Below are positions 19,618-38,099 of a stretch of 42,809 bases of DNA, piece after piece. Numbering within the stretch: the first letter of the stretch is position 1; each line of letters opens with the position of its first letter. A program made the translations under genes and the position numbers. The notes under the pieces are model-generated. The model did no database searches and was not told the origin of the DNA. It saw nothing but the letters and a program-made list of their open reading frames with translations. The stretch comes from Clostridia bacterium (lineage in GTDB: Bacteria; Bacillota; Clostridia; Christensenellales; UBA1242), in NCBI GenBank assembly GCA_017408305.1, contig JAFQUU010000009.1:1-42809 (forward strand), in the 5' to 3' direction.

Positions 19618-21210
19618 ATGATAAATATAGGCACTTTAATGTTTTTTAGTGCTGCACCCTTGGCCATCGGCGTTGGCATTGGTGCCCTTGCTTTAGGGGC
19701 AGTGCTTGGCATTGTGGTGAAGAAGGCCTTAGAAAAAAGGCAAATTGAAAACAGCAAACTTCAAGCCGCAAAAATCATTGAACAAGCCGAAACCGAGGCA
19801 AAAACACTAAAAAAAGAAGCGATTTTAGAAGCAAAAGAAGAAATACAAACATTAAAAGAAACTGCAGATAAGGAAATCTTTACAAGAAGAACAGAACTTC
19901 AAAAAACAGAGGATAGACTTCTGCAAAGAGAACAACATTTGGACAATAAAGAGCAAAATCTTGATAAAAAGTCTGAACAACTTGAACAGCAAAAACAAAG
20001 CGTGCAAGACATAAAACAAAATCTTCAAAAAGAGATTGAACTTCAAAAAGAAGAGCGTGCAAAAATTGTTTTAGAACTTGAACGCGTTGCAAAAATCACA
20101 AGTGAAGAAGCCAAACAAATTTTGATGACTTCTTTAACTGATGAAGCACGAAAAAGTGCTTTTAAAGAAATAAAAAGAATAGAAGAAGAAACCAAAGAAA
20201 AAGCCGACCAAATTGCACAAAATCTTGTTTCAATGGCAATTCAAAAATGTGCAACTGATGTAACAAGCGAAGCAACGGTTTCTGTTGTTGCTATTCCAAA
20301 TGATGAAATGAAAGGCAGAATCATCGGTAGGGAAGGGCGTAACATTCGTTCTATCGAAAATGCAATGGGGGTTGACCTTATTGTTGATGATACACCAGAA
20401 GCAATAACCATTTCTTGTTTTGACCCGGTAAGGCGTGAAATTGCAAGACTTTCACTTGAAAAACTTATTATGGATGGGCGTATTCACCCAACAAGAATTG
20501 AAGAAATTGTAAACAAGGTAACCAAAGATGTTGAACACACAATCAAACAAGCAGGCGAAAATGCAAGTGAAGAAGCAGGTGTCTTTGGCCTTCATCCAGA
20601 ACTTGTTAAAACTCTTGGGAAACTTAAATATCGTACAAGTTACGGCCAAAACTGCCTAAAGCATTCTCTAGAGACTGCGTATATTGCAGGTATGCTTGCA
20701 AGTGAACTTGGGGCTGATGTCAAAGTTGCAAAAAGGGGTGGCCTTCTTCATGACATTGACAAAGCACTTGATCATGAGGTTGAAGGCACACATGTTTCAA
20801 TTGGTGTCGAACTTGCAAAAAAATATAAGGAAAATCAGGCTGTGGTCCACTGTATTGAAGCACACCATTTTGGCGTAGAGTTTGCTTCTGTTGAAGCAGT
20901 TTTGGTTCAAGTGGCAGACAGTATTTCATCTTCACGCCCAGGTGCAAGAAGGGAAACTCTTGAAAACTATGTAAAACGCCTTCAAAAACTTGAGGAGATT
21001 TCAAACTCATACACAGGTGTTGAAAAATCTTTTGCCATTCAAGCCGGTAGGGAAATTAGGATTTTGGTTAAGCCAACAGAAATAACTGATGAAGAGGCAC
21101 ACTTTTTGGCAGAAGATATTGCAAAACGCATTGAAAATGAAATGGAATATCCGGGACAAATTAAAGTAAATGTGATTAGAGAAACTCGTTTTTCTGCAAC
21201 AGCAAAATAA
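19618..21210 (+). CDS. rny: Ribonuclease Y
   Basis: 530 aa. N-terminal TM, coiled coil, KH ([11 protein letters not shown]), HD (GGLLHDIDK). Confidence 0.95.
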
Positions 21211-21232
21211 AAAAAATAATATTAAAAATAAA

Positions 21233-21259
21233 AAAAGACCTATTTTTTAGGTCTTTTTT
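21233..21259 (+). terminator. rny terminator
   Basis: AAAAGACCTA-TTTTT-TAGGTCTTTT, a 10-bp stem plus T run. Confidence 0.85.
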
Positions 21260-21440
21260 ATTAAAAATAATTTAAATAAATTTAATTTTATTTTTTTAAT
21301 TTATTTTTATTTAATATATAAATATTTAAAGGGTAGGGTAGTGAAGAAGCAAAAAAAAACAAAGAAAATGACCTTTGTTTTTATATTAAAATGTTCTTTA
21401 AAACACCGACATCTTTTTTGAGTAGGGGAGTGAAGATGTG

Positions 21441-22748
21441 TTAATCGCAAAATTTCTTTGCAAAAATATAGTCAAAAATGCCACCTACAACAAAATTAAA
21501 TAAAAGAACGCAAGGATATAAAAATGTTGTTGCGAAGCCTAGGCAAGTTGCAAAAGAAAAACCATTATTAAACAAAAGATTTAAAGAAAATACGGCAGCA
21601 ACGCCCACAAAGAAGATTGCAATTGACACAAATAAATTACTATTTGAACTGTGAATTTTCCTAAATTTGTTTTTGGTAATTAGGTAATAAAGTGCAGGAA
21701 TAGCAAATATTATTGGCATTATTAAATACGCAATTGGATACTCAACTGAGCCATATATATTTGAAAAAATTAAGTAAATTGCAAGAGAACTGACAAAAAT
21801 TAGAGAAAATATTGTTAAGTATTTAGCGAAAAGATGTTTTGTCGATATTTTACCAAAACTTTCAGCAATTTCTTCGTTATCTTCCATATTTGCAGAAAAC
21901 TTTATTTGCATATCATCATATCTTGCTTGCAACTGATTTACAGACACAAACTCATCATCATCTGCATCGCCAAGTTTTATAAAGTTTGCTGATTTGCTCA
22001 TCTCATTATATAGGGCTTCAATTTTGTCAGCATCTGTTTCTTTTTTTCTGGATGAACGAATTTTTTGAACGACTTCACCAGTAGGCTCAATTTCCAAATT
22101 AAGACCACTAAGTTTTTTTACTTTAGGTATTTTTTCTTTTGGCATGGTTTCGGTAATAAATACGCCACCATCGGTGTGGGTTTCTTCTTGAAAACCTTCA
22201 TTTTCGTAATATTTTTCTTGGCTATTTTTTTCATTTTTAGAGTCTGGAATTATGTATACATCATGGGCATCCAAAAACACTCCGTCATCTTTTGTCGTTG
22301 TTTTTTCTTCCTTTTTAAGCGTATCTAAAAAAGTTTTACTGTCAAAGTTTTGCTGTTTTTTTTGTTCCTGATTTTTTTCAGTGAACAACTTGTCATTATT
22401 TTTTTGAAAATCGCCAAATTCGTAATATTTTTTTGGGGTATTTTGACTGTCAACAGAAAAGTTTGGAAGAACAGCATTTTCTTGTTCCTCTAGATATTTT
22501 TTGCCAGAATCAGTCAATTTATAATAATGACGCTTTCCACCATTTTTGCTGTCTTTCCAATATGACGAAATAAAACCTTGTTTTTCCATTCGTGAAAGCG
22601 TGCCATATAAAGTTGGTTGTTTTACAGAGACTTGGTTATCAGATTTTTTATGTAAATCATTTAAAAGTTCGGCACCATATTTGTCGCCGTCTAATAAACA
22701 AGATAATAATATTGTGGAGATTTGTCCACGAGGAATTAAATTATTCAT
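21441..22748 (-). CDS. PadR-family transcriptional regulator fused to a C-terminal multi-TM membrane domain
   Basis: 435 aa. N-terminal winged helix (KYGAELLNDL...QPTLYGTLSRMEKQGFISSYW...RHYYKLTDSGKKYL), a low-complexity linker, then about 4 TM helices. Confidence 0.75.
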   Translation of the reverse strand: MNNLIPRGQISTILLSCLLDGDKYGAELLNDLHKKSDNQVSVKQPTLYGTLSRMEKQGFISSYWKDSKNGGKRHYYKLTDSGKKYLEEQENAVLPNFSVDSQNTPKKYYEFGDFQKNNDKLFTEKNQEQKKQQNFDSKTFLDTLKKEEKTTTKDDGVFLDAHDVYIIPDSKNEKNSQEKYYENEGFQEETHTDGGVFITETMPKEKIPKVKKLSGLNLEIEPTGEVVQKIRSSRKKETDADKIEALYNEMSKSANFIKLGDADDDEFVSVNQLQARYDDMQIKFSANMEDNEEIAESFGKISTKHLFAKYLTIFSLIFVSSLAIYLIFSNIYGSVEYPIAYLIMPIIFAIPALYYLITKNKFRKIHSSNSNLFVSIAIFFVGVAAVFSLNLLFNNGFSFATCLGFATTFLYPCVLLFNFVVGGIFDYIFAKKFCD

Positions 22749-22954
22749 AAATGCCTCTCTGATAATAATTTTATCAAAACCAAATACTAAAAGTCAAACA
22801 ATGTAATTTAAGTAAACTGACAATTTTAAAAAAATTATGCCGAAATAGTAAGATATAAAGTTTGGATATCCACAAAATTTTATATAATGAAAAGGTTGAT
22901 TAATTTTTATGCAATTTGAAGAAGACCACTTCAATAATTTATAAAAAAACCTTT

Positions 22955-22982
22955 CTTTTCGCTAAAGTTGTCTTTAGCGAAA
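22955..22982. repeat. attL (dif-like core): CTTTTCGCTAAAGTTGTCTTTAGCGAAA
   Basis: Direct repeat of 28074-28101. Internally an 11-bp inverted repeat around TTGT. Confidence 0.85.
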
Positions 22983-22984
22983 TC

Positions 22985-23131
22985 TTATAGATGACACTGT
23001 TGTTCAACAAAATCTTCTAAAATGATTCTCACTAAATCACTAGTCTTTCTACGCTTTTCCAATGCAATCTTATCTAATTGCATTTTTAATTCTTCTGGTA
23101 GGCGTACAGCAAAAAGTATTTTTTTCTGCAA
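22985..23131 (-). CDS. Ribbon-helix-helix (Arc/CopG-like) DNA-binding protein, prophage-encoded
   Basis: TTG start at 23131, downstream of AAAGGAGGTGA. 48 aa: MQKKILFAVRLPEELKMQLDKIALEKRRKTSDLVRIILEDFVEQQCHL, a beta-strand/helix/helix RHH pattern. The track ATG at 23197 would read through the SD and promoter. Confidence 0.65.
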   Translation of the reverse strand: MQKKILFAVRLPEELKMQLDKIALEKRRKTSDLVRIILEDFVEQQCHL

Positions 23132-23175
23132 GGGGAACTCACCTCCTTTTAAGTTAAATATTGTATAACAATTTA

Positions 23176-23204
23176 ATAATACAAAAAATGTTAACAAATG
23201 TCAA
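23176..23204 (-). promoter_or_regulatory. Promoter of the RHH gene (TTGACA-17-TATTAT on the - strand)
   Basis: - strand TTGACA (23204-23199), 17-nt spacer, TATTAT (23181-23176). Palindrome ATTGTATAACAAT (23160-23172) sits at about +1 as a candidate operator. Confidence 0.55.
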
Positions 23205-23249
23205 ACAAAAAACAACAAGTTTTTAAACTTATTGTTTTATATTGAATAT

Positions 23250-24257
23250 TTAATCAATAGACCGAAGTAATCGACAAATTTGACTTTCCTTTGCTCTTCT
23301 TTTTAAAGCCAAATACTCTTCTTTCGACAAATCAGTCCTTTCTAATTGTAAAGCAAGGTTATACTCTGCTAACTCTTTTCTTGATTTTTTTATACTTTCA
23401 ATTACTGCATGATTTTCTAAGTCATATAAGTCATCATAATATTTAGGTGGTTTTATTTTTAGAACCTTTCTTTTACCATCACTTAAAATTATTTCATCGG
23501 TTTGGTATATTTCATGCTTATTCTCTTCAAAAAATTTTCTAGCAATACCAGGGGAACGAGAGCAATTCATGAACTCTGGAACTAAGCCATAAGTCAAATC
23601 AGATTCTTCATTTAACACGAAACCACTTGTTTTGCCTTTTTGTTTTTTCATAACATACCGAGCAGTGTAAGCAATAGAATTCCAAGTTACCTCACCAACT
23701 GAACAAAGACCTTTATTCCATACTTTCTCTATTATTTCAGAGCGATATATTTTATCGCCTGCCTTGTTTGTGAAAAAATATTTAAGGTCATTAAGTGGGC
23801 AATTAAATAATATCATATGAAAATGTGGTCTTGACTTTTTTGTGCCATATTCACCACAACCAAAAAATCTTATATTATCTATACCAAAATGATAACTCAT
23901 GTATCTTCTTAAATCTTTCATAAATTTTTGCATATCTTTTTTAACCAAAGTTGGTTTCTTCTGCACTTCACCAGTTTGAGCATTTAAAGATTTTACAAAA
24001 GTTAAATTATCATCAGAGTAAGTCAATGTAACAAAATAATTATTAGAATGTTCTTTACTTTCAATTAAACAGCGATTGGCCCACATTCTTGAATTTGCAA
24101 GTCGGCAACCAACGCATTTTCCACAAGGAATCTCAATAGGTTCAAATATTTTTGATAAATTATCATACTCAAATTGAGTTTTAGGAAAATAAATATTTTT
24201 CTTGCCATTGGAATTTAAACCTTTTGAAATTGCATGCAAGGGACTAAAACAACTCAT
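23250..24257 (-). CDS. Microviridae replication initiation protein VP4 (rolling-circle HUH endonuclease)
   Basis: 335 aa. CGKCVGCR Zn-like N-terminus, YFVTLTY (motif 1), HFHMILFN (HUH), YTARYVMKK (catalytic Tyr motif). GAGGT RBS. Confidence 0.9.
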   Translation of the reverse strand: MSCFSPLHAISKGLNSNGKKNIYFPKTQFEYDNLSKIFEPIEIPCGKCVGCRLANSRMWANRCLIESKEHSNNYFVTLTYSDDNLTFVKSLNAQTGEVQKKPTLVKKDMQKFMKDLRRYMSYHFGIDNIRFFGCGEYGTKKSRPHFHMILFNCPLNDLKYFFTNKAGDKIYRSEIIEKVWNKGLCSVGEVTWNSIAYTARYVMKKQKGKTSGFVLNEESDLTYGLVPEFMNCSRSPGIARKFFEENKHEIYQTDEIILSDGKRKVLKIKPPKYYDDLYDLENHAVIESIKKSRKELAEYNLALQLERTDLSKEEYLALKRRAKESQICRLLRSID

Positions 24258-24576
24258 CGTTGTACCTCAACTTTCAAAATGTTTTATTTAATACTGACAA
24301 CTAAAATTGTGTCAGTCAGCACCATTACATCAAGTAACTAATTGGTGCTGACTTTGGCACAACCAAAGTATTGTATTTTTTTAAAGTAAATTTAAAGCTA
24401 TTACTTTCGGCATCCGTTCTTTAATGCGTTACTCCAAGCGATAAAGTACTTACAAAAGGGATATCCCTCTTTGCCCTTCGGCAAATTCACCCTTAGCAAT
24501 TATGCCGAATTGTAACGCCACGTTATAGAATAAATGGGAATTTTGCTAATAAAAAAAGTAATAAATATTATTACTT
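24258..24576 (-). other. Structured non-coding region of the prophage (candidate origin/regulatory region)
   Basis: No ORF longer than about 10 codons. At least five perfect stem-loops: 24294-24315, 24315-24352 (10-bp stem), 24351-24369, 24457-24468, 24470-24485. An AT hairpin at 24554-24578 follows VP2. Confidence 0.6.
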
Positions 24577-24921
24577 TTAATATAATCTTCGCATAGTCCT
24601 AGATAAATGCCTTGTAGCAAGGGCTAGTGCAGTATTAACCAACATACTAAGACCATTAGAGCTCTTCCCTACACCACTTGCAGAAGAACCGGACGGCGTT
24701 GAAGCGGCGGCACCATTGCCACCACCAAACATATTAACAGGATTTAAACCTGCTTTTTTCATGTCTTCAACTGCTCTTTGATAAGCGCTATTAGACAATT
24801 CAGTTTGCCAATCCCTTTGTTTTTGAGCTTCTTCGGCATTAAAGGCAAACTCTGCTTTTTGAGCAGAAGTTGCACCAGACAAATCATTGAATATACTCCC
24901 AATATTATCTAAAAAACTCAT
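24577..24921 (-). CDS. Microviridae minor capsid / DNA pilot protein VP2-like (short form)
   Basis: ATG 24921 follows GGGAGG, 8 nt after the VP1 stop. 114 aa. AYQRAVEDMKKAGLNPV motif and a Gly/Ser-rich C-terminal half. The track start at 25053 overlaps VP1 and is rejected. Confidence 0.7.
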   Translation of the reverse strand: MSFLDNIGSIFNDLSGATSAQKAEFAFNAEEAQKQRDWQTELSNSAYQRAVEDMKKAGLNPVNMFGGGNGAAASTPSGSSASGVGKSSNGLSMLVNTALALATRHLSRTMRRLY

Positions 24922-24931
24922 AAAGGCCTCC

Positions 24932-26611
24932 CTATAATGATTTAAGACCAGGAACTGAATAAATAGGCATAACCCTAGTACAAATATTCTTAAAGTAGAA
25001 ATCAGCAATGAATTGGTCTTCCGTAGATGAAGATACTGATAAGGTCCTATCAAGATTGGCAGTTGTTTCCTCTAACCAAGTAGAGCCAAGAACTGGTTTA
25101 GAGGTATATTTGTCTGCATAATGCCAATTATCTAATGGCTGAGTATGAGTAGAACGAAATGCACCACTAACACGAGATGGTTTATACCTATACTCTGCCC
25201 ATGCTTCCTGATAGCCGAAAACTTCATCATCAACAGTTGTGCCTTGTGCATAGATTTCCTTATTAAATACAGGCTGTTCACCAATGTTAGCAAGAGCAGG
25301 CCAATAATAGTCAAACCTCTTTTTCCTTGACCAAAAACGCTCTATTCCTTGTTGATATGTGTGTTCGGTTCTAACACAAACAAGACCAAGTAATATGCCA
25401 TGCTCAGTAAACGACTTGGTAAAGCTAGAAGATTTATCGCCTGTCAAAGAATAAGCGGCAGTATTACCTTGAGGAGATACATCATCAGTTGAGGATGTTT
25501 GTAAAACTTGAGAAATATTAATAGGAATCCTCTTACCACCAAGATACTCTGGTCTTTGCTGGCGAGCATCTGGAGAAACAACGCCAAAATGAGATTTAAT
25601 AATTTCTGCATAACGAGTACCACCACGAGCATCTCGTTCATACAACTTCTGCACTGCAAAGGCTTGTCTTAATTGGTTTATTGTTGATGCAGTTGCAGTT
25701 GATAAGTCAGCAATACCAGTTGCTTTTAGACCAGTATTTGTACCATCAAATCCAATAGTTTTGCCAGCAGTCCAAGCTGTATTGCTACCAGCTGTACTGC
25801 CAATACCAGTATAATTTGAAGTTGAAAGCAAATAAGGATTATTAGAATCAGAACTTGCAGAAACAAAAACACCTTTATCTGTACCATTAGTCCATATAGG
25901 ATTCTTGCCATCAGAAGAAAGAGAAATAGACAAAGGCGCACTAGAACCAAGTGGAATATTTACATCTGGACCTTTTTGTGGGGCTGGAAGACAACTTGTA
26001 AAATAATCATGATATTTGTTAACAGGGGCAATCCCACCTCCAGTACAGCCAGACATCAAAAAGTTGGCATAATTAAAATTGCTTAAAGTACTATTGCTAT
26101 CTGAAAGACTAAAAGATGCAGAAGATTGCAAATTTTGGTCTCTAAACCACTCATTCCATGTCAAAACGTAAGCTCTAAAAGGTAATGCCGAAACAGAAAG
26201 ATTTTTAACCCCAGTAGGAATACCCATATAATCAGCAATAGAACCTTTAAACCAACCAGTAGGTGCAATTGCTTGAGGAACCTCATACTCTGTTGGACTT
26301 TCCCAATCTGGATTACTGGATTCACCATTAAAATACTTCCAACTACTCCAAACCAACCTGTTCGGTATAAAGAAATAATAGAGGTCAAGATAACAGTTAT
26401 CCATAACAGGGTGAACAGGCGTGGTCATTCTAACCACACAAGAAGTTTCCATTTTAAAAGTATCACCAGGTAAAACTTCATCAACAAAAATTGGAATAAG
26501 TTTGCCAGCGTTAAAAGTTGTCTTATGTTGACTACTTCTATCAAAGGTTGAACGAGGCATTGACAAAAAAGTTGGATTTACAGCAAAACGACTTTCTACA
26601 TTTCTATTCAT
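24932..26611 (-). CDS. Microviridae major capsid protein VP1 (F-protein family)
   Basis: 559 aa. The N-terminus PRSTFDRSSQHKTTFNAGKLIPIFVDEVLPGDTF...MDNCYLDLYYFFIPNRLVW closely resembles chlamydiaphage-type VP1. AGGAGG RBS. Confidence 0.95.
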   Translation of the reverse strand: MNRNVESRFAVNPTFLSMPRSTFDRSSQHKTTFNAGKLIPIFVDEVLPGDTFKMETSCVVRMTTPVHPVMDNCYLDLYYFFIPNRLVWSSWKYFNGESSNPDWESPTEYEVPQAIAPTGWFKGSIADYMGIPTGVKNLSVSALPFRAYVLTWNEWFRDQNLQSSASFSLSDSNSTLSNFNYANFLMSGCTGGGIAPVNKYHDYFTSCLPAPQKGPDVNIPLGSSAPLSISLSSDGKNPIWTNGTDKGVFVSASSDSNNPYLLSTSNYTGIGSTAGSNTAWTAGKTIGFDGTNTGLKATGIADLSTATASTINQLRQAFAVQKLYERDARGGTRYAEIIKSHFGVVSPDARQQRPEYLGGKRIPINISQVLQTSSTDDVSPQGNTAAYSLTGDKSSSFTKSFTEHGILLGLVCVRTEHTYQQGIERFWSRKKRFDYYWPALANIGEQPVFNKEIYAQGTTVDDEVFGYQEAWAEYRYKPSRVSGAFRSTHTQPLDNWHYADKYTSKPVLGSTWLEETTANLDRTLSVSSSTEDQFIADFYFKNICTRVMPIYSVPGLKSL

Positions 26612-27162
26612 TAAATATTACCTCCTAAATTAACACCTTGGCTTTGAACAGGCGTGCTTTGACTTTCCATAGATACATTAATAGGTTCAACATTTTGAAC
26701 TTGAGGTTGAACAATAGGCTCTACCTTATTAATTTGTGGTTGTAAATGCTTATTTATCTTTTCTTCAAAAGTACCATTTGAAATACTTGCAACAAACTCT
26801 GACATAGAGTGGTTAAACTCAGAACGGACTGCAACAGGCATTTCTTTAAATAAGGTTTCAGCATTTAATATGATTTCTTGAGCATCATTTAAAGACTTTG
26901 GCATATTAGAAATATCTGCAAAAAATCCTTGAGATTGATTTAATGCTAAAGTATCTCCATTAACATGTCGTTCTAAAATGTTATAAACCAAACATTCTTC
27001 CTTATGAGCTTGAATTTCTTTGTAAATATTTCTTTTACCAGTTTGTTTAACTTCTTTTTTCCCAGTTTCTTTATCTATAACAAGAGAGTAAACTGGCACT
27101 ATATCTTCACCAGAGGGACTAGCTTCTACTGGTGGTTTTTTTGACCTTGAATAAAAATCCAC
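26611..27162 (-). CDS. Microviridae internal scaffolding protein VP3-like
   Basis: 183 aa, GTG start overlapping the upstream stop. IYKEIQAHKEEC...GDTLAL...AQEIILNAETLFKEMPVAVRSEFNHSMSEFV matches the VP3 pattern. Its stop overlaps the VP1 ATG (TAATG). Confidence 0.75.
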   Translation of the reverse strand: MDFYSRSKKPPVEASPSGEDIVPVYSLVIDKETGKKEVKQTGKRNIYKEIQAHKEECLVYNILERHVNGDTLALNQSQGFFADISNMPKSLNDAQEIILNAETLFKEMPVAVRSEFNHSMSEFVASISNGTFEEKINKHLQPQINKVEPIVQPQVQNVEPINVSMESQSTPVQSQGVNLGGNI

Positions 27163-27416
27163 TACTCACCTGCCTTTGTAATAACATCATTTGCTTTAAT
27201 TAAAAACTTAACTTCACTTGTCAATATTCCAGTATCATCATCAAAAGTACCTAAGCACCAAAGTTCTTTATCCTCTGGGTTTGTATTTATTGCATTTTTT
27301 TGCACTTCATTAGCACCATTTGTAAATTCACGAATGGCAACACCTTCATTATGTGTAAAGAATGGATTCATAAATCCTATTTTAGTATCTTTTATTGCGA
27401 AAACTTTTAGCTGCAT
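27162..27416 (-). CDS. Microviridae small non-structural protein (VP5/ORF5-like)
   Basis: 84 aa. KVFAIKDTKIGFMNPFF...GVAIREF...NPEDKELWCLGTFDDDTG resembles, from memory, the conserved gokushovirus ORF5 family. Confidence 0.6.
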   Translation of the reverse strand: MQLKVFAIKDTKIGFMNPFFTHNEGVAIREFTNGANEVQKNAINTNPEDKELWCLGTFDDDTGILTSEVKFLIKANDVITKAGE

Positions 27417-27591
27417 ATTTTTTATTCTCCTTTATTAATTTTTTTTGTGATTTTAATTCATTTTTAAATTCTTTTATTAACAATTTGTATTCTTCAACTG
27501 TTAATAATACAAGAGGGTAAAAATAAATTAGAGGTTTATTGTTTTTATATGTATATCTAACAATAATTTCTTTATCAATTTTTGCTCTCAT
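27382..27591 (-). CDS. Hypothetical Lys-rich prophage protein
   Basis: 69 aa. Its ATG overlaps the stop of the upstream 31-aa ORF (ATGA) and its 3' end overlaps the VP5-like start by 35 nt. No motif recognised. Confidence 0.35.
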   Translation of the reverse strand: MRAKIDKEIIVRYTYKNNKPLIYFYPLVLLTVEEYKLLIKEFKNELKSQKKLIKENKKYAAKSFRNKRY

Positions 27592-27683
27592 AAGCGAGTA
27601 CCACCACGCATTGAAGTTGGCACTATATTTATCAACTTAGATTTAACTGCTGTATGTCTAAAGATTTTTTTATCTTTTTTCAT
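27588..27683 (-). CDS. Small basic DNA-binding peptide (gokushovirus ORF8 / phiX J-like)
   Basis: Below the ORF-track size cut-off. MKKDKKIFRHTAVKSKLINIVPTSMRGGTRL (31 aa, highly basic). The C-terminal MRGGxRL resembles the chlamydiaphage ORF8 end as I remember it. Confidence 0.5.
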   Translation of the reverse strand: MKKDKKIFRHTAVKSKLINIVPTSMRGGTRL

Positions 27684-27684
27684 G

Positions 27685-28017
27685 TTAGTTGGACGACGTT
27701 TCAATGCACACCTCCTTTTTTTGTGGAGTTGATAATATTTTTTCTATTTCTGCAATAAAATCTTCTTCTGCAAAATCAATATCATTTTGTAAACACAACA
27801 TTTGAATTTGATTCAAAACAAGACTACGCTTCACTTCACCACTACCTCTGCCAATAAGTTTTTCAACTTGGTTAATAATATTAGGCAGTTTTTGGACAAT
27901 TTGAGCAAGCTTAAGTGTTTTCGTTTTTTTATTGCTTTTAAAGAAATTAACAACTGCAATAATTGATGTTACAATTGTAATACAACAGGTAACAATAATC
28001 TCTGGGTCATCAAACAT
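27685..28017 (-). CDS. Single-TM membrane protein, phage holin-like (LL-H-family resemblance)
   Basis: ATG 28017 lies 5 nt after AAGGAG. The track GTG at 28023 overlaps the SD. 110 aa. N-terminal TM (IIVTCCITIVTSIIAVVNFF), then GSGEVKRSLVLNQIQMLC...DIDFAEEDFIAEIEKIL. Confidence 0.5.
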   Translation of the reverse strand: MFDDPEIIVTCCITIVTSIIAVVNFFKSNKKTKTLKLAQIVQKLPNIINQVEKLIGRGSGEVKRSLVLNQIQMLCLQNDIDFAEEDFIAEIEKILSTPQKKEVCIETSSN

Positions 28018-28073
28018 ATTCACTCCTTCTTTAATTTAAAATTGTTATACAAGACAAAAAAACCAAAAAAAAA

Positions 28074-28101
28074 CTTTTCGCTTTAGTTGTCTTTAGCGAA
28101 A
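28074..28101. repeat. attR (dif-like core): CTTTTCGCTTTAGTTGTCTTTAGCGAAA
   Basis: Direct repeat of attL with two substitutions (AA to TT) in the left arm. The right-arm palindrome extends to 28103 (…GCGAAAAG). Confidence 0.85.
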
Positions 28102-28260
28102 AGTTAAAAGTCTCAAAATATTTTGAAAATTTGTGCCACCCTTTTCTACAAAAAAATTAAAAAAACTTAAAAATTGCATAATGATTGTTGTTATAAAACT
28201 TTAAAAGTACAAAAAATTTGCTTTTGCTGTGGAATTTGCTTGCAAAATATTGTTTAAATA

Positions 28261-28357: not shown

Positions 28358-29311
28358 TTATACACCCTGCACTAATTTATTAAAGAATTTGTTGATGTCT
28401 TGATATTGGACTTGGCACATATCATCTTCAAAAATCTTTTTGTTTGTAGAAGATATTGAAAACAATTTTCTTATAGGAGTGTTTATTAAATAATTTGTTG
28501 CAAAAACAAAATTATCATAAATATCTTCACTTTCAAACGCTGAGTATGGCAAATTTGCAATCAAACTTTCCATAAAAAGCCCTTTTGAAGAGTCCTGCAT
28601 CAAATGTTCATAAAGACCTTTGAAACAAATAACAAGTTGCAGAAGCTTTTCTGAAAAAGATTGTTTTAAAAGGTGGTTTATGTTTTGAAAGTAATCAACC
28701 AGTTTGAATTCTTTTAGTTTTTTCTTGTTTGGTGCGTAAAACAAAAATGTTGAGTCTTCTTTTTTGATGACAGGATAAATTCTTATATTATACGGCACAT
28801 TTTTACCTTGCACGCCAATTACGCCTCTTGCAGAAAAAGCAACATCATCTTGGGTGATTTCTTTGGCGATTGCATGCACAAGGTCTTTTGTAAAATAAGC
28901 CAAATTATAGTCTTCTTTGTGTGTTTCATAAAGGTTTACAGGTGCTTCTTCTGCACTTTGTTTTTTGCGTTTTTTCTTCTTTTTTTTCTTTTTACGGTTT
29001 GCCCAAGCGTATTTTAACCTTTCTTTAAAGATTACCCATTTGTTTTTAAAAAGTTTATGGGTGTTAAGTTCTATTTGAGGGTTATTAACTAAAACAAAGA
29101 GGTCTATCGTTGAAGAAGGAAGCACGGCACCAGAATAAAATGACCCAAATGGCAAAATTTCAAAGTCTTTTGATACATAAGGATTTACATCTGAAATGGC
29201 TGAAAGTGCATTTTGAACAATTGTTGTTGCAAAACCTAGGCCCTGCAGTGCCACTTCATCATTTAGGCTTTCTGCAAAATTTTTTATGGTTGATTTATCA
29301 ATTTTTATCAA
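28358..29311 (-). CDS. Hypothetical protein with a degenerate Pol-beta/CD-NTase-like nucleotidyltransferase fold and a poly-Lys insert
   Basis: 317 aa. PFGSFYSGAVLPSSTIDLFVLV resembles the hG[GS]-x(9-13)-DxD NTase motif, but the second acidic residue is Phe. Insert NRKKKKKKKKRKKQ. Confidence 0.45.
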   Translation of the reverse strand: MIKIDKSTIKNFAESLNDEVALQGLGFATTIVQNALSAISDVNPYVSKDFEILPFGSFYSGAVLPSSTIDLFVLVNNPQIELNTHKLFKNKWVIFKERLKYAWANRKKKKKKKKRKKQSAEEAPVNLYETHKEDYNLAYFTKDLVHAIAKEITQDDVAFSARGVIGVQGKNVPYNIRIYPVIKKEDSTFLFYAPNKKKLKEFKLVDYFQNINHLLKQSFSEKLLQLVICFKGLYEHLMQDSSKGLFMESLIANLPYSAFESEDIYDNFVFATNYLINTPIRKLFSISSTNKKIFEDDMCQVQYQDINKFFNKLVQGV

Positions 29312-29331: not shown

Positions 29332-30612
29332 TTATTTTTTTGGAGCCAAAATTGTTTGTCCACCCATAAATGGCCTTAAAACTTCCGGAATTGTAACTGT
29401 GCCATCGGCATTTTGGAATTGTTCTACAATTGCTGGCATAAGGCGTGTTGTTGCAAGCCCAGATGCATTAAGGATATGGCAAAACTTGTTTTTGCCTGTT
29501 TTTGAGTCTTTATAGCGAATGTTGCCCCTTCTTGCTTGATAGTCCCTAGCGTTGCTGGCAGAAGAAACTTCCTTATAGATATTCATGCTTGGAAGCCAAA
29601 CTTCTATATCATAAGTGCGTGCCATACTGTGAGAACAGTCTGCAGCCGCAAGTTTGCTGGTTTGAAAATGAAGGCCAAGTTTTTCCATAAGGCTTTCTGC
29701 TTTGCCAACAAGTTCCATAAACGCTTCGTCAGATTTTTCTGGTGTTGTGTATTGAAACATTTCAACCTTATTGAATTGATATCCCCTAATCATACCTCTT
29801 TCCTCTGTGCGATAACTGCCAACCTCGCAACGATAGCAAGGAGTGTAAGCAAAGTATTTTTTAGGAAGGTCTTCTTCTTTCAAAATTTCATTTCTGTGAT
29901 AGTTTACAAGTGCTGTTTCTGCAGTTGGCAAAATAAACTTTCTTGGTTCAACGCCTTCAAGCCAGAAAACATCTTCCTTAAATTTTGGGAACTGCCCTGC
30001 AACCAAACCACTTTCGTAATTTAAGATGTGTGGTGGCAAAATAAATTCATAACCATCTTTAAGGTGTTCTGAAATAAAGAAATTTAAAAGTGCCCATTCA
30101 AGCCTTGCACCATCGCCCTTGTAAATCCAAGTGCCACGCCCTGAAATTTTGCTTGCCCTTTCATAGTCAATAAGCCCAAGGCTTTCGCAAAGTTCAACAT
30201 GGTCTTTAGGTTCAAAATCAAAATGTGGTTTTTCGCCAAAAACATTAACAGGCTTATTGTTTTCTTTGCCACCAGGAAGCAGGTCTGCATCAGGAATGTT
30301 TGGAAGTGCTGACATAAAATCAAAAATCTTATCACTAAGCACCTTAACTTGTTCATCAAGGGCTTCAATTTCTTTGTTTATGCCCTTCACTTCTTGAAAG
30401 ATATGTTCTGCACTTTGGCCGGCTTTTTTAAGTGCTGGAACCTCAGATGACAAGGTGTTTCTTTTGGCCTTAAGTTCATCAGCCTTTGCCATAAGGCGAT
30501 TTTTTGTTTCATAGTCTTTAAGAAGTTCGTCAAAGTTTGTGTCCCAATTTTTCTTAAGAAGGGCCTGCCTTACTTTTTCTGGGTTTTCTTTAATTAAATT
30601 AATATCAATCAT
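29332..30612 (-). CDS. serS: Seryl-tRNA synthetase
   Basis: 426 aa from ATG 30612 (MIDINLIKENPEKV...). Coiled-coil tRNA arm and class II motifs (RGYQFNKVEMF, GLATTRL). The track start at 30714 is an upstream extension. Confidence 0.95.
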   Translation of the reverse strand: MIDINLIKENPEKVRQALLKKNWDTNFDELLKDYETKNRLMAKADELKAKRNTLSSEVPALKKAGQSAEHIFQEVKGINKEIEALDEQVKVLSDKIFDFMSALPNIPDADLLPGGKENNKPVNVFGEKPHFDFEPKDHVELCESLGLIDYERASKISGRGTWIYKGDGARLEWALLNFFISEHLKDGYEFILPPHILNYESGLVAGQFPKFKEDVFWLEGVEPRKFILPTAETALVNYHRNEILKEEDLPKKYFAYTPCYRCEVGSYRTEERGMIRGYQFNKVEMFQYTTPEKSDEAFMELVGKAESLMEKLGLHFQTSKLAAADCSHSMARTYDIEVWLPSMNIYKEVSSASNARDYQARRGNIRYKDSKTGKNKFCHILNASGLATTRLMPAIVEQFQNADGTVTIPEVLRPFMGGQTILAPKK

Positions 30613-30677
30613 ATTTCGTATCCTTTTACTTGGTAATATAACACTTTTGTAAAAAAAAATCAAGAAGATAAATTCAT

Positions 30678-30706
30678 TTGCGATTATTTTTTTTGTATGG
30701 TAATAT
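30678..30706 (+). promoter_or_regulatory. Promoter TTGCGA-17-TGgTAATAT abutting the recombinase ATG
   Basis: -35 at 30678-30683, TG-extended -10 at 30698-30706. The ATG at 30713 is only 6 nt downstream and no SD is present. Confidence 0.45.
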
Positions 30707-30712
30707 AAAAGC

Positions 30713-31753
30713 ATGAGTCAGTACTTTATTGAAAGAGATAAAAAAAATTTGAATGAAATTAAAAATTATCAAAAAAAACTGCCTTCTTTTTGCCAAAATT
30801 ATTTTTTGGATAAAGAAACCACTTCTTCCACTTCTACCCGTCTTGCAATTGCTATAGACCTAAGCGTTTTTTTTGAGTTTATTAAAAAATACAAATTTTC
30901 TGGCACTAAAGTTGAAAATATCTCCTACCACCAAATGTCTAAAATTGAAAGTGATGATATTTCAAGTTTCTTAAGTTATATTTCTTACTACGAGCATAAT
31001 GGAAAAAACTATAAAAACTCCAATAACGGAAAGTCCAGAAAACTTGCAAGCATTAGAAGCCTATTTAAATGGCTTTATAAGAAAAATTACATACAAAGTG
31101 ATGTCGCTGCCAAAATTGATACACCAAAAAAGCACGAAAAGCCTATTGTTAGGCTTGAGGCAGATGAAGTTGCAAAGATGCTTAACACCACAGAAGATGG
31201 AAGTTTTGAAATGTCAAAACGCCAAGTAAAATACCTGCAAAACACTTCTAAACGAGACACTGCCATCTTAACGCTTTTTTTGTCAACAGGAATTCGCGTA
31301 AGCGAATGTGTTGGGCTTGACCTTGATGACTTTGATTTTGACAACAATGCATTTAAAATCACAAGAAAAGGTGGCAATCAAACAATCTTGTATTTTACTG
31401 AAGAAACCAAAGACGCCCTGCTTGATTGGCTTGAGGTTAGAGCAAATTCTATGATTCCAGAAGAAGAAACTGCGATGTTCACTTCACTACAAAAAAGACG
31501 GCTTACTGTTCGGGCTGTTGAATACATCGTAAAAAAATATGCAAAGTTTGTAAACCCACTGAAAAAAATATCCCCACATAAACTGAGAAGCACTTTTGGC
31601 ACCAACCTATATCGTGGGACAGGCGATATTTATATTGTTGCAGATGTTTTGGGACATAAAGATATTAATGTAACAAAACGCCACTATGCAGCCATTGCAG
31701 AAGACTCTAAAAAAACTGCTGCCCAAATTATAAAACTTAGAGATAAAAAATAG
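30713..31753 (+). CDS. Xer-family tyrosine recombinase, XerS-like (long N-terminal domain)
   Basis: 346 aa. Catalytic blocks TGIRVSECVGLDLDDF (Arg), ITRKGGNQT (Lys hairpin), HKLRSTFGTNLY (HxxR), LGHKDINVTKRHY (His, Tyr). Length and the RKGG block resemble streptococcal XerS rather than the ~300-aa XerC/D. Confidence 0.85.
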   Translation: MSQYFIERDKKNLNEIKNYQKKLPSFCQNYFLDKETTSSTSTRLAIAIDLSVFFEFIKKYKFSGTKVENISYHQMSKIESDDISSFLSYISYYEHNGKNYKNSNNGKSRKLASIRSLFKWLYKKNYIQSDVAAKIDTPKKHEKPIVRLEADEVAKMLNTTEDGSFEMSKRQVKYLQNTSKRDTAILTLFLSTGIRVSECVGLDLDDFDFDNNAFKITRKGGNQTILYFTEETKDALLDWLEVRANSMIPEEETAMFTSLQKRRLTVRAVEYIVKKYAKFVNPLKKISPHKLRSTFGTNLYRGTGDIYIVADVLGHKDINVTKRHYAAIAEDSKKTAAQIIKLRDKK

Positions 31754-36974: not shown

Positions 36975-38099
36975 TTAATCTTTTCCTTTGTACAGTTTTG
37001 CAACTTTTAAAACTTCATTAACTCTTTCGTGTTTTACTTTGTCATCAACTTGATTTTCCATAACGCTTGCAGGAGTGCCCTGCCTTTTTGAGTACATAAA
37101 AGCAAAAACATTGTCAAACTTCACTTCTTTAAGAAGGCTTATGGTTTCCTGAAAATCTTCCTCAGTTTCACCAGGGAAGCCAACAATAATGTCAGTTGAA
37201 AGTTTAACGCCCTTTATTTTTTGTTTGATTTCCTCAATAACGCTCAAGTATTTTTCACGAGTGTATTTTCTATTCATAAGAGAAAGTATTTTTGTGCTTC
37301 CACTTTGCACTGGCAAATGCACTTCTTTAAGCATCTTTGGATTTAAGGCAATAAAATCAATAAGTTCGCTTGATAAATCTTTTGGGTGTGATGTCATAAA
37401 TGTAACAACAAAATCGCCTTCAATTTTGCAAATTTCCTTAAGAAGCGTAACAAAGTTTACTCCCTCAAGACCTTCGCCATAACTGTTCACATTTTGCCCA
37501 AGAAGTGTGATTTTTTTATAACCTTCCTTTATTACTTGTTTTGCTTCCTGAACAATGTCTTTAAGTGGTCTACTTCTTTCCCTGCCCCTAACATATGGCA
37601 CAATGCAATAGGTGCAAAAATTGTTGCAACCCTGCATAATGTTTATCCAAGCATTTTCGCCACTTGTGCGATATTTGGGCAAGTCTTCCCCCAAGAGATT
37701 AAAGTCTTCGCTGTGGCGTAAAATATGCTTGCCTTGGTAAGAATTTAAAAACTCTTCAAAAAGATATAAATTTGATGTGCCAAAAATAATATCCACAAAT
37801 GGAAAAGTTTTGTAGATATACTCTGCGTTATCCTTAACCTGAGTCATACACCCACAAACTGCAATAATTTTGTTTGGATTTTCTTTCTTAAGGCGTTTTA
37901 GTGCACCAATATTGCCAAATGCCCTATCTTCTGCACCTGCCCTTATTGCACAAGTGTTAAAAACAATGACATCTGCGTTTTCAAGGGTTGATGCTTCTTG
38001 ATAACCAAGGTTTTGAAGCACTCCAGCAATTTTTTCACTTTCATGAACATTTAGTTGACAACCATAAGTTGTAATAAAGTAAGATTTTTTCATAAGCAC
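36975..38099 (-). CDS. miaB: tRNA-i6A37 methylthiotransferase MiaB-like (no TRAM domain)
   Basis: 374 aa. UPF0004 domain (TYGCQLNVHESE, NTCAIR, GCM), radical-SAM CNNFCTYC. The ORF ends about 60-70 aa short of the usual TRAM domain. Confidence 0.8.
   Translation of the reverse strand: MLMKKSYFITTYGCQLNVHESEKIAGVLQNLGYQEASTLENADVIVFNTCAIRAGAEDRAFGNIGALKRLKKENPNKIIAVCGCMTQVKDNAEYIYKTFPFVDIIFGTSNLYLFEEFLNSYQGKHILRHSEDFNLLGEDLPKYRTSGENAWINIMQGCNNFCTYCIVPYVRGRERSRPLKDIVQEAKQVIKEGYKKITLLGQNVNSYGEGLEGVNFVTLLKEICKIEGDFVVTFMTSHPKDLSSELIDFIALNPKMLKEVHLPVQSGSTKILSLMNRKYTREKYLSVIEEIKQKIKGVKLSTDIIVGFPGETEEDFQETISLLKEVKFDNVFAFMYSKRQGTPASVMENQVDDKVKHERVNEVLKVAKLYKGKD

Follow-up and report, generated by a model that had tools for sequence, protein, structure and literature searches.

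The window analysed in the present study, that is, the whole stretch of 42,809 nucleotides, carries a gokushovirus-like microvirus prophage of approximately 5.1 kb, every gene of which lies on the minus strand. The prophage is bounded by the attachment sites attL and attR and is inserted between two host genes, encoding a PadR-family protein and a 317-aa nucleotidyltransferase-like protein, and a host gene for a XerS-like tyrosine recombinase is located further to the right. The features of the locus are as follows.

21210..22954, no strand: region of a terminus-type switch; flip of gene orientation at 21210/21441, maximum of cumulative G-C at 21841
21441..22748, minus strand: PadR-family host gene, left neighbour of the site; syntenic in L008, L011, L012, L034 and L039
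22955..22984, plus strand: attL, CTTTTCGCTAAAGTTGTCTTTAGCGAAATC, with left arm and centre from the host
22985..28073, minus strand: microvirus (gokushovirus-like) prophage, with Pfam and PHROGs matches for all main genes
22985..23197, minus strand: RHH (CopG/Arc-like) protein, 70 aa, adjoining attL; PF01402, E=0.0035, below cut-off
23250..24257, minus strand: VP4 rolling-circle replication initiator, 335 aa; PF23343, E=6e-20; phrog_942, E=3e-110
24577..24921, minus strand: VP2-like DNA pilot protein, 114 aa; matches to pilot-protein families of PHROGs, lowest E=1e-23
24932..26611, minus strand: VP1 major capsid protein, 559 aa; PF02305 (Phage_F), E=2e-174
26611..27162, minus strand: VP3 internal scaffolding protein, 183 aa; PF09675 (Chlamy_scaf), E=9e-32
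27162..27416, minus strand: VP5-like protein, 84 aa; PF20577, E=2e-21
27382..27591, minus strand: 69-aa ORF; gene call in L001, L003 and L146, kept in the related circular phage
27685..28023, minus strand: holin-like protein, 110-112 aa, first gene from attR; PF09682, E=2e-5; phrog_6918, E=8e-8
28074..28103, plus strand: attR, CTTTTCGCTTTAGTTGTCTTTAGCGAAAAG, with right arm and flank from the host
28358..29311, minus strand: 317-aa nucleotidyltransferase-like host gene, right neighbour; syntenic in relatives
30713..31753, plus strand: 346-aa XerS-like tyrosine recombinase of the host; PF00589, E=2e-31

Several properties of the element were observed. First, VP1, VP2, VP3, VP4 and VP5 are all present and a circular relative of 5,126 bp was found, as is expected of a gokushovirus-like member of the Microviridae, the circular genomes of which measure approximately 4.5-6 kb. 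The capsid protein VP1 is 57-60% identical to GenBank faecal microvirus capsids and at most 64% identical to those of IMG/VR contigs. Second, the 70-aa RHH protein was matched to CopG-like and Arc-like repressor families of PHROGs (E=1e-4 to 5e-4) and is a candidate lysogeny regulator, and the 69-aa ORF showed no family match in Pfam or PHROGs. Third, no recombinase or integrase was found in Pfam or PHROGs among the ORFs within 22985-28073. All prophage ORFs have been assigned or searched, and the absence of an integrase agrees with the IMEX proposed in the first-pass annotation. The holin-like gene at 27685-28023 may be set beside the statement of a review that gokushoviruses are without a phiX-type lysis gene.

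Two observations concern the host genes. At approximately codons 106-117, the product of the 317-aa gene contains a run of lysines, RKKKKKKKKRKKQ, for which a long stretch rich in A/T homopolymers codes, and this A/T tract is possibly slippage-prone; the orthologue of this gene in L036 gave a weak CD-NTase C-terminal match. In addition, a radical-SAM (MiaB-like) gene, compared at L001:1219-2337, L004:16263-17381 and positions 36975-38099 of the window, where it is intact, is split into parts of 240 and 119 aa in one contig of a sister sample and is intact (372-374 aa) in another and in the window; the split is due either to a frameshift or to misassembly.

Attachment sites in the window, the relatives and the phage

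The attL 28-mer at 22955-22982, CTTTTCGCTAAAGTTGTCTTTAGCGAAA, and the attR 28-mer at 28074-28101, CTTTTCGCTTTAGTTGTCTTTAGCGAAA, are identical at 26 of 28 positions, as reported in the first-pass annotation, and the AA/TT exchange accounts for the sole differences. A repeat finder recovered the two sites as a direct pair with a spacing of 5,119 bp (family D5), and the reconstructed 28-mer core, with up to three mismatches allowed, occurs at only two sites in the 42.8-kb window (0 expected from 100 shuffles). When the outer halves are joined, the perfect 13+4+13 palindrome that had been claimed for them is obtained, namely the 30-bp sequence CTTTTCGCTAAAG-TTGT-CTTTAGCGAAAAG with 13-bp arms, and the same sequence is present in the relative L008. 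The palindrome can also be read as 11-bp arms flanking the 6-bp centre GTTGTC (11+6+11). The arms of this attB are perfectly complementary, which is the layout expected of a dif site (28-34 bp, inverted arms and a short centre).

Exact look-ups of the 317-aa, Xer and VP1 proteins returned the same lysogen in sister samples only and no empty site, and the empty-site contigs were reached via a homologue search with the 346-aa Xer protein. A single exact copy of the 30-mer had been anticipated at the syntenic locus of a prophage-free relative, and it was found in L008 (Xer 94% identical), in which one CTTTTCGCTAAAGTTGTCTTTAGCGAAAAG lies in the intergenic region between padR and the 317-aa gene. 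The left flank of this empty site is that of the attL side of the window and the right flank is that of the attR side; an N-gap of the scaffold lies to the right, starting 38 bp from the site, and leaves the junction unaffected. Accordingly, the left flank and left arm of attL are identical to the L008 site, and the right arm and right flank of attR match it. Recognisable variants occupy the same padR/317-aa locus in four relatives more distant than L008, namely L011 (Xer 76%; CTTTTCGTTAAAGTTGACTTTAACGAAAAG), L012 (Xer 69%; CTTTTCGTTAAAGTTGTCTTTAGCGAAAAG), L034 (Xer 63%; GATTGCGAAAAAGTTGTCTTTTGCGAATAC) and L039-41 (Xer 55%; the related TTGCGTAAAAC-TTGT-GTTTTACGCA). Moreover, CTATTCGCAAAAGCTGTCTTTTGCGAATAG is found in L036-38 (Xer 61%), 9.7 kb from xer and with only 230 bp of sequence on the far side of the site, and CTTTTCGTTAAAGCTTTCTTTAGCGAAAAG is found in the GTDB assembly of L018 (Xer 44%), where it precedes the start codon of xer by 53 bp. 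With the strand set by the skew switch, the centre at L039:7133-7158 reads ACAA where other lineages have TTGT; the near-symmetric arms leave the orientation of this site unfixed, so ACAA need not mean an inverted centre.

The joining of the inner halves had been predicted to yield a less symmetric attP, and a real counterpart of this attP is present in a circular phage. A homologue search with VP1 led to an 89%-identical capsid on contigs of approximately 5.2 kb. The contig L145 is 5,267 bp long with a terminal repeat of 141 bp, and therefore represents a circle of 5,126 bp, which is colinear with the prophage over its full length at approximately 91% nucleotide identity. Its attP, located between the RHH and holin genes, reads CTTTTCGCTCCAGTTGTCTTTAGCGAAATC in the orientation of the window and agrees with the predicted sequence save for CC in place of TT at the variable dinucleotide. 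In general form, attP is CTTTTCGCT(TT or CC)AG-TTGT-CTTTAGCGAAAT in the non-coding gap between these two genes, and the two sister phages differ at the site only in the replacement of A10A11 (TT or CC). Compared with dif, attP deviates at A10, A11 and A29, all three of which are invariant in eight of eight host sites. The traces of attP are evident at both ends of the prophage. The right arm of attL is host-like but carries a phage-derived A>T change at its outermost position, and the right end of attL, GAAATC-ttata, is the same as that in the attP of L145. The left arm of attR is derived from the phage, with AA>TT at two positions where the host sites show no variation, and the A-run to the left of attR extends into phage DNA, as it does in L145.

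The same phage was also recovered from another sample as L146, which starts with 36 bp of host flank and an attR-type site (junction at L146:1-75) and ends with attP (L146:5160-5219) followed by phage DNA. This arrangement suggests either that the phage is inserted in tandem, or that its integrated and circular forms coexist or were merged in the assembly.

All four sites, attB, attP, attL and attR, have been observed. The crossover must fall within the shared AGTTGTCTTTAGCGAAA, which is where it had been placed from the window. The sites expected of a Xer-dependent integrating element (IMEX) are present, with an attP mimic in L145, attL and attR in the window and attB in L008. A motif scan of IMG/VR gave no match and hence no free-phage attP of this type, and no similar site was found at up to seven mismatches among the 80 nearest VP1 relatives in IMG/VR, in which the palindromes are unrelated.

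A second integration, at the homologous palindrome, was identified in the host of L153/L154 (Xer 47% identical), in which a different microvirus, with a VP1 that is 64% identical and an HTH repressor gene, lies between a Met-gamma-lyase gene and serS-xer. The host-side junction in L153 is a perfect ATCTTTGCGCAAAA-CTCTTC-TTTTGCGCAAAGAT, and the other junction has an altered centre and a degenerate arm, CCTTTACGCAAAAAT, that comes from the phage and again carries a change at an inner position. L153 represents an independent event, and microviruses therefore use this family of sites recurrently. The serS-xer block of this host (L153:14611-17096) lies on the opposite side of the palindrome compared with that of the window (29332-31753), as might result from an inversion or rearrangement with the terminus site at its centre.

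A third microvirus prophage, with a VP1 approximately 64% identical to that of the window, was observed in a host bacterium with microcompartment genes, where it is flanked by the 17-bp direct repeats TTCTGATAGTTCTTATT at L147:8566-8582 and L147:13851-13867 (also in L149-L152). A 267-aa tyrosine recombinase starts 96 bp outside the right repeat in L147 and matches XerA (archaeal-type) best, with 124 bits, below the cut-off. These repeats and this recombinase may constitute a further recombinase-plus-site module used by microviruses.

Conservation, chromosomal position and the host recombinase

The palindrome was found in the non-coding DNA of eight lineages whose Xer proteins are 44-94% identical to that of the window. 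In the alignment of the eight host sites, 13 of the 30 columns show no variation. The arm cells are 93% complementary and 6 of the 13 arm positions have changed on both sides, which preserves the dyad symmetry, a level reached by none of 500 shuffles. Unlike the palindrome, the surrounding intergenic DNA is without evident similarity in the more distant relatives. Orthologues of 340-350 aa are encoded near the site in all eight lineages, at a distance between site and xer of 53 bp (L018), 1.2-2.9 kb (six lineages) or 9.7 kb (one), and the site stays near xer though the flanking genes differ in L018, L036 and L153.

The site is single in the window apart from the duplication caused by the prophage, and one copy is present at each related locus. 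A degenerate form of the motif was matched in 20 GTDB assemblies, the source species not being among the matches, and never twice in one assembly. These counts speak against a generic REP or dispersed element, which had been named as the outcome contrary to an attachment site. L018, with a Xer orthologue at a distance of 53 bp, is the sole related locus among the 20; the remaining loci are unrelated or contain longer hairpins, e.g. L015 and L029. The degenerate motif is also rare in JGI metagenomes (22 of 241 million records), and no homologues of the window proteins were detected at these 22 loci. Separately, one palindrome, TTTCGCTAAAGTATGCTTTAGCGAAA, occurs in identical form at L016:1862-1887, L017:2240-2265 and L031:3860-3885, in MAGs labelled Prevotella and Clostridia, and these three loci contain no homologue of the nine window proteins tested.

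The proposal that the site sits at the GC-skew inflection also held, and the sign of the skew changes within the window at the site, from +0.102 on the left to -0.099 on the right. The cumulative G-C maximum at 21841 is approximately 1.1 kb from the site and the switch in gene orientation is approximately 1.5 kb away; nearly all genes to the left of 21.2 kb lie on the plus strand and nearly all genes to the right of 21.4 kb lie on the minus strand. The same sign change at the site was observed in L011, L012, L034, L039-41 and L153 (seven related loci), the two sides of the site in L153 having values of +0.114 and -0.061. No skew change was observed over the 7-kb locus of L018, and both L018 and L036 have little sequence on one side. 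The search for KOPS-like skewed words pointing at the site was uninformative, being dominated by coding-strand bias. Consensus sequences of the canonical XerCD dif and of difSL matched the window with 9-10 mismatches at best (10 for difSL), and neither type of site is present there.

The 346-aa recombinase is a host gene rather than a gene of the prophage. It is encoded 2.6 kb to the right of attR, outside the prophage, with two genes between the site and xer, and no second recombinase was found within the 42.8-kb window. Its catalytic motifs are GIRVSE (193), PHKLR (288), LGH (313) and RHY (323-325), which together provide the R..K..H-x-x-R..H..Y catalytic domain of a tyrosine recombinase. 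The best solved structures are those of XerD, XerA and XerH, and the alignment with XerD (1a0p) covers the catalytic boxes. Among NCBIfam models, XerS (NF003462) ranks first, with 187.1 bits over the full length, which is below the equivalog cut-off of 267; XerC, XerA and XerD follow, and the scores are below the XerC and XerD cut-offs as well. The orthologue of L018 scored 167.8 bits against the XerS model.

The linkage of site and xer suggests that the 346-aa protein is the enzyme acting on the site, and the palindrome is probably the dif site of the host, at which chromosome dimers would be resolved, a reaction of Xer recombinases that FtsK usually controls. It is somewhat probable that one recombinase suffices. 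On the other hand, scores below the XerS, XerC and XerD cut-offs are also compatible with the palindrome being an ordinary attB of another recombinase, e.g. a different host or helper-phage integrase, with no role in dimer resolution and an incidental position at the terminus. We consider this unlikely. The site is kept, with compensatory changes in its arms, in prophage-free genomes with Xer identities of 44-94%, which implies a function for the host; it tracks both the skew switch and xer despite the different flanking genes in L018, L036 and L153; and two different microviruses use it. An ordinary attB is a less economical reading of these observations than a Xer/dif system.

The palindrome might also be an operator (e.g. 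of PadR), a Rho-independent terminator or a REP-like hairpin that the phage shares by chance, and several properties of the sequence agree with such an assignment, in that the site is located approximately 200 bp upstream of the padR start, folds as ssDNA into a strong hairpin (-12.7 kcal/mol, z = -7) and is followed by a T-run after attR on the minus strand. However, this T-run is phage DNA, and the empty sites of L011 and L012 are without a T-run on either side. A terminator scan made no call at the palindrome, and both neighbouring genes have terminators of their own, that of the 317-aa gene being at 28286-28266. In L018, L036 and L153, the site is apart from padR and yet stays with xer and the skew switch, as would not be expected of a PadR operator. 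Against a REP or RNA element, the site is not dispersed and has no Rfam match. Moreover, the reciprocal recombination of attB and attP into attL and attR is left unexplained by a terminator or an operator. The terminator, operator and RNA readings were rejected from the terminator scan, Rfam, folding and the empty-site comparison, and we regard a chance-shared regulatory element as very improbable.

Proposed mechanism of integration and its significance

We propose that the microvirus is an IMEX that inserts at a dif-type site beside a XerS-like recombinase, and we consider this reading of the locus likely. First, the ssDNA genome of the phage would be converted to the double-stranded replicative form, and the host recombinase would pair the phage attP with dif. 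Second, strand exchange within the shared AGTTGTCTTTAGCGAAA would insert the phage and leave attL and attR. Third, attL would remain a nearly intact dif that probably still serves the host, and attR would bear the defective arm of the phage. This arm would make the half-sites unequal, and the resulting bias in the exchange of strand pairs would reduce excision during dimer resolution. By analogy with the attP sites of CTX, VGJ and enterogokushovirus, the substitutions at A10, A11 and A29 may impose a bias on the order in which strands are exchanged, or may limit excision. The substitutions in attP also halve the stability of the ssDNA hairpin (-6 versus -12.7 kcal/mol), and a weaker hairpin in the single-stranded genome might be a second, non-exclusive reason for them.

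The ability of attP to form a hairpin in the ssDNA genome could also be taken to indicate that integration is performed by the HUH initiator VP4 acting on this hairpin rather than by a tyrosine recombinase, and VP4 is the sole DNA-cleaving enzyme encoded by the element. We regard this as extremely improbable. A clean reciprocal exchange between inverted-arm sites of approximately 30 bp is the signature of a tyrosine recombinase, the host site is linked to xer and is also conserved in genomes that lack the phage, and the integration of gokushoviruses has been shown experimentally to need XerC/XerD and dif motifs (PMC7062461).

The locus is of interest in several respects. Gut microviruses are abundant and mostly without a known host, and their presence in Gram-positive bacteria has been noted only recently. 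With the full set of attB, attP, attL and attR for a microvirus of a Clostridia lineage, and with a second case that is independent, both temperate behaviour and host assignment can be tested directly. In addition, a probable dimer-resolution site and its recombinase become available for a large group of uncultured anaerobes within the Clostridia, and the phage substitutions at invariant positions offer a handle on the order of strand exchange and on escape from excision. A wider hypothesis is plausible, although we stop short of calling it probable, namely that a new dif/Xer family is widespread in uncultured gut Clostridia (Christensenellales-like), with a single XerS-related recombinase and a perfectly palindromic site with arms of 13-16 bp, and that the abundant gokushovirus-like microviruses of the gut mimic this site and are thereby temperate in hosts of the Gram-positive type, with deliberate substitutions at invariant positions of the inner arm that set the direction or reversibility of integration. 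If such a family exists, the matching of attP to dif would provide a general means of host assignment for gut microviruses.

Comparison with known Xer systems and integrating phages

The closest parallel in phage behaviour is provided by the Enterogokushovirus prophages, which integrate at the dif site of E. coli via XerC/XerD (Kirchberger & Ochman 2020, PMC7062461). As in that system, the element is an integrase-less microvirus of approximately 4.3-5 kb with attP in a short non-coding region, the integrated form is bounded at one end by a bacterial dif that is conserved and at the other end by a phage mimic of dif that varies more, and integration is reversible in principle. Unlike in that system, the host belongs to the Gram-positive-type Clostridia, the palindrome, with its perfect 13-bp arms, shows no sequence relationship with the 28-bp XerCD dif, a single XerS-like protein encoded nearby takes the place of XerC plus XerD as candidate enzyme, and the phage carries RHH and holin genes. 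The behaviour of the phage also matches that of earlier Bacteroidetes proviruses. The filamentous Vibrio phages CTXphi, VGJphi and TLCphi likewise have an attP that deviates from dif on one side, a deviation that controls productive strand exchange, but they are filamentous and use XerCD.

With respect to the recombinase, the XerS/difSL system of streptococci and lactococci (Le Bourgeois 2007; Nolivos 2010, PMC2965235; review PMC5357621) was suggested in the first-pass annotation, where the outer arms were likened to difSL. Part of this likeness stands. XerS is the best model for the 346-aa protein and matches over its full length, the sizes are similar (346 versus 356 aa), the site is linked to the recombinase gene (directly upstream in L018), and AT-rich outer arms and a CG core are shared. 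The remainder does not stand, given that the score of 187 bits is below 267 and that the arms and 11-bp centre of difSL are absent. The difSL site is 31 bp long and its arms, TTTCCGAAAA and TTTTCTTGAAA, are unequal and flank a centre of 11 bp (PMC2965235; PMC5357621), whereas the arms found here are equal and perfect and flank a centre of 4-6 bp. The immediate adjacency of site and gene known from XerS/difSL is seen to a varying degree, the distance between site and xer being 53 bp in L018, 2.6 kb with two intervening genes in the window and 9.7 kb in L036. The XerH/difH system of Helicobacter and Campylobacter is comparable as a single-recombinase module with dif near the gene; however, the match to XerH is weak, at 48 bits to the solved structure, and the site sequences are unrelated.

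The palindromic layout resembles that of the single-recombinase dif/XerL system of Legionella and Coxiella, with its element LME-1 (PMC9765430; bioRxiv 10.1101/2021.09.12.459815), rather than difSL. In both cases, the site (dif in Legionella, a probable dif here) was revealed by a mobile element with a mimic of it, and the architecture of the sites agrees in that both are approximately 30 bp long, AT-rich, intergenic and located at the terminus, with perfect symmetric arms and a 4-bp centre. The differences are that the arms are 13 bp here and 10 bp in Legionella, with unrelated sequences, that the host belongs to another phylum, and that the element is a microvirus and not LME-1. Perfect arms around a centre of 4-6 bp have so far been reported only for the Legionellales. 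The first mention of microviral prophages in Firmicutes dates from 2022 and concerns Erysipelatoclostridium and Mammaliicoccus, and our literature search found no paper on the attachment sites of such prophages or on the present type of dif. The insertion of an integrase-less phage at dif is a known principle, and the host group and the kind of probable dif site are new.
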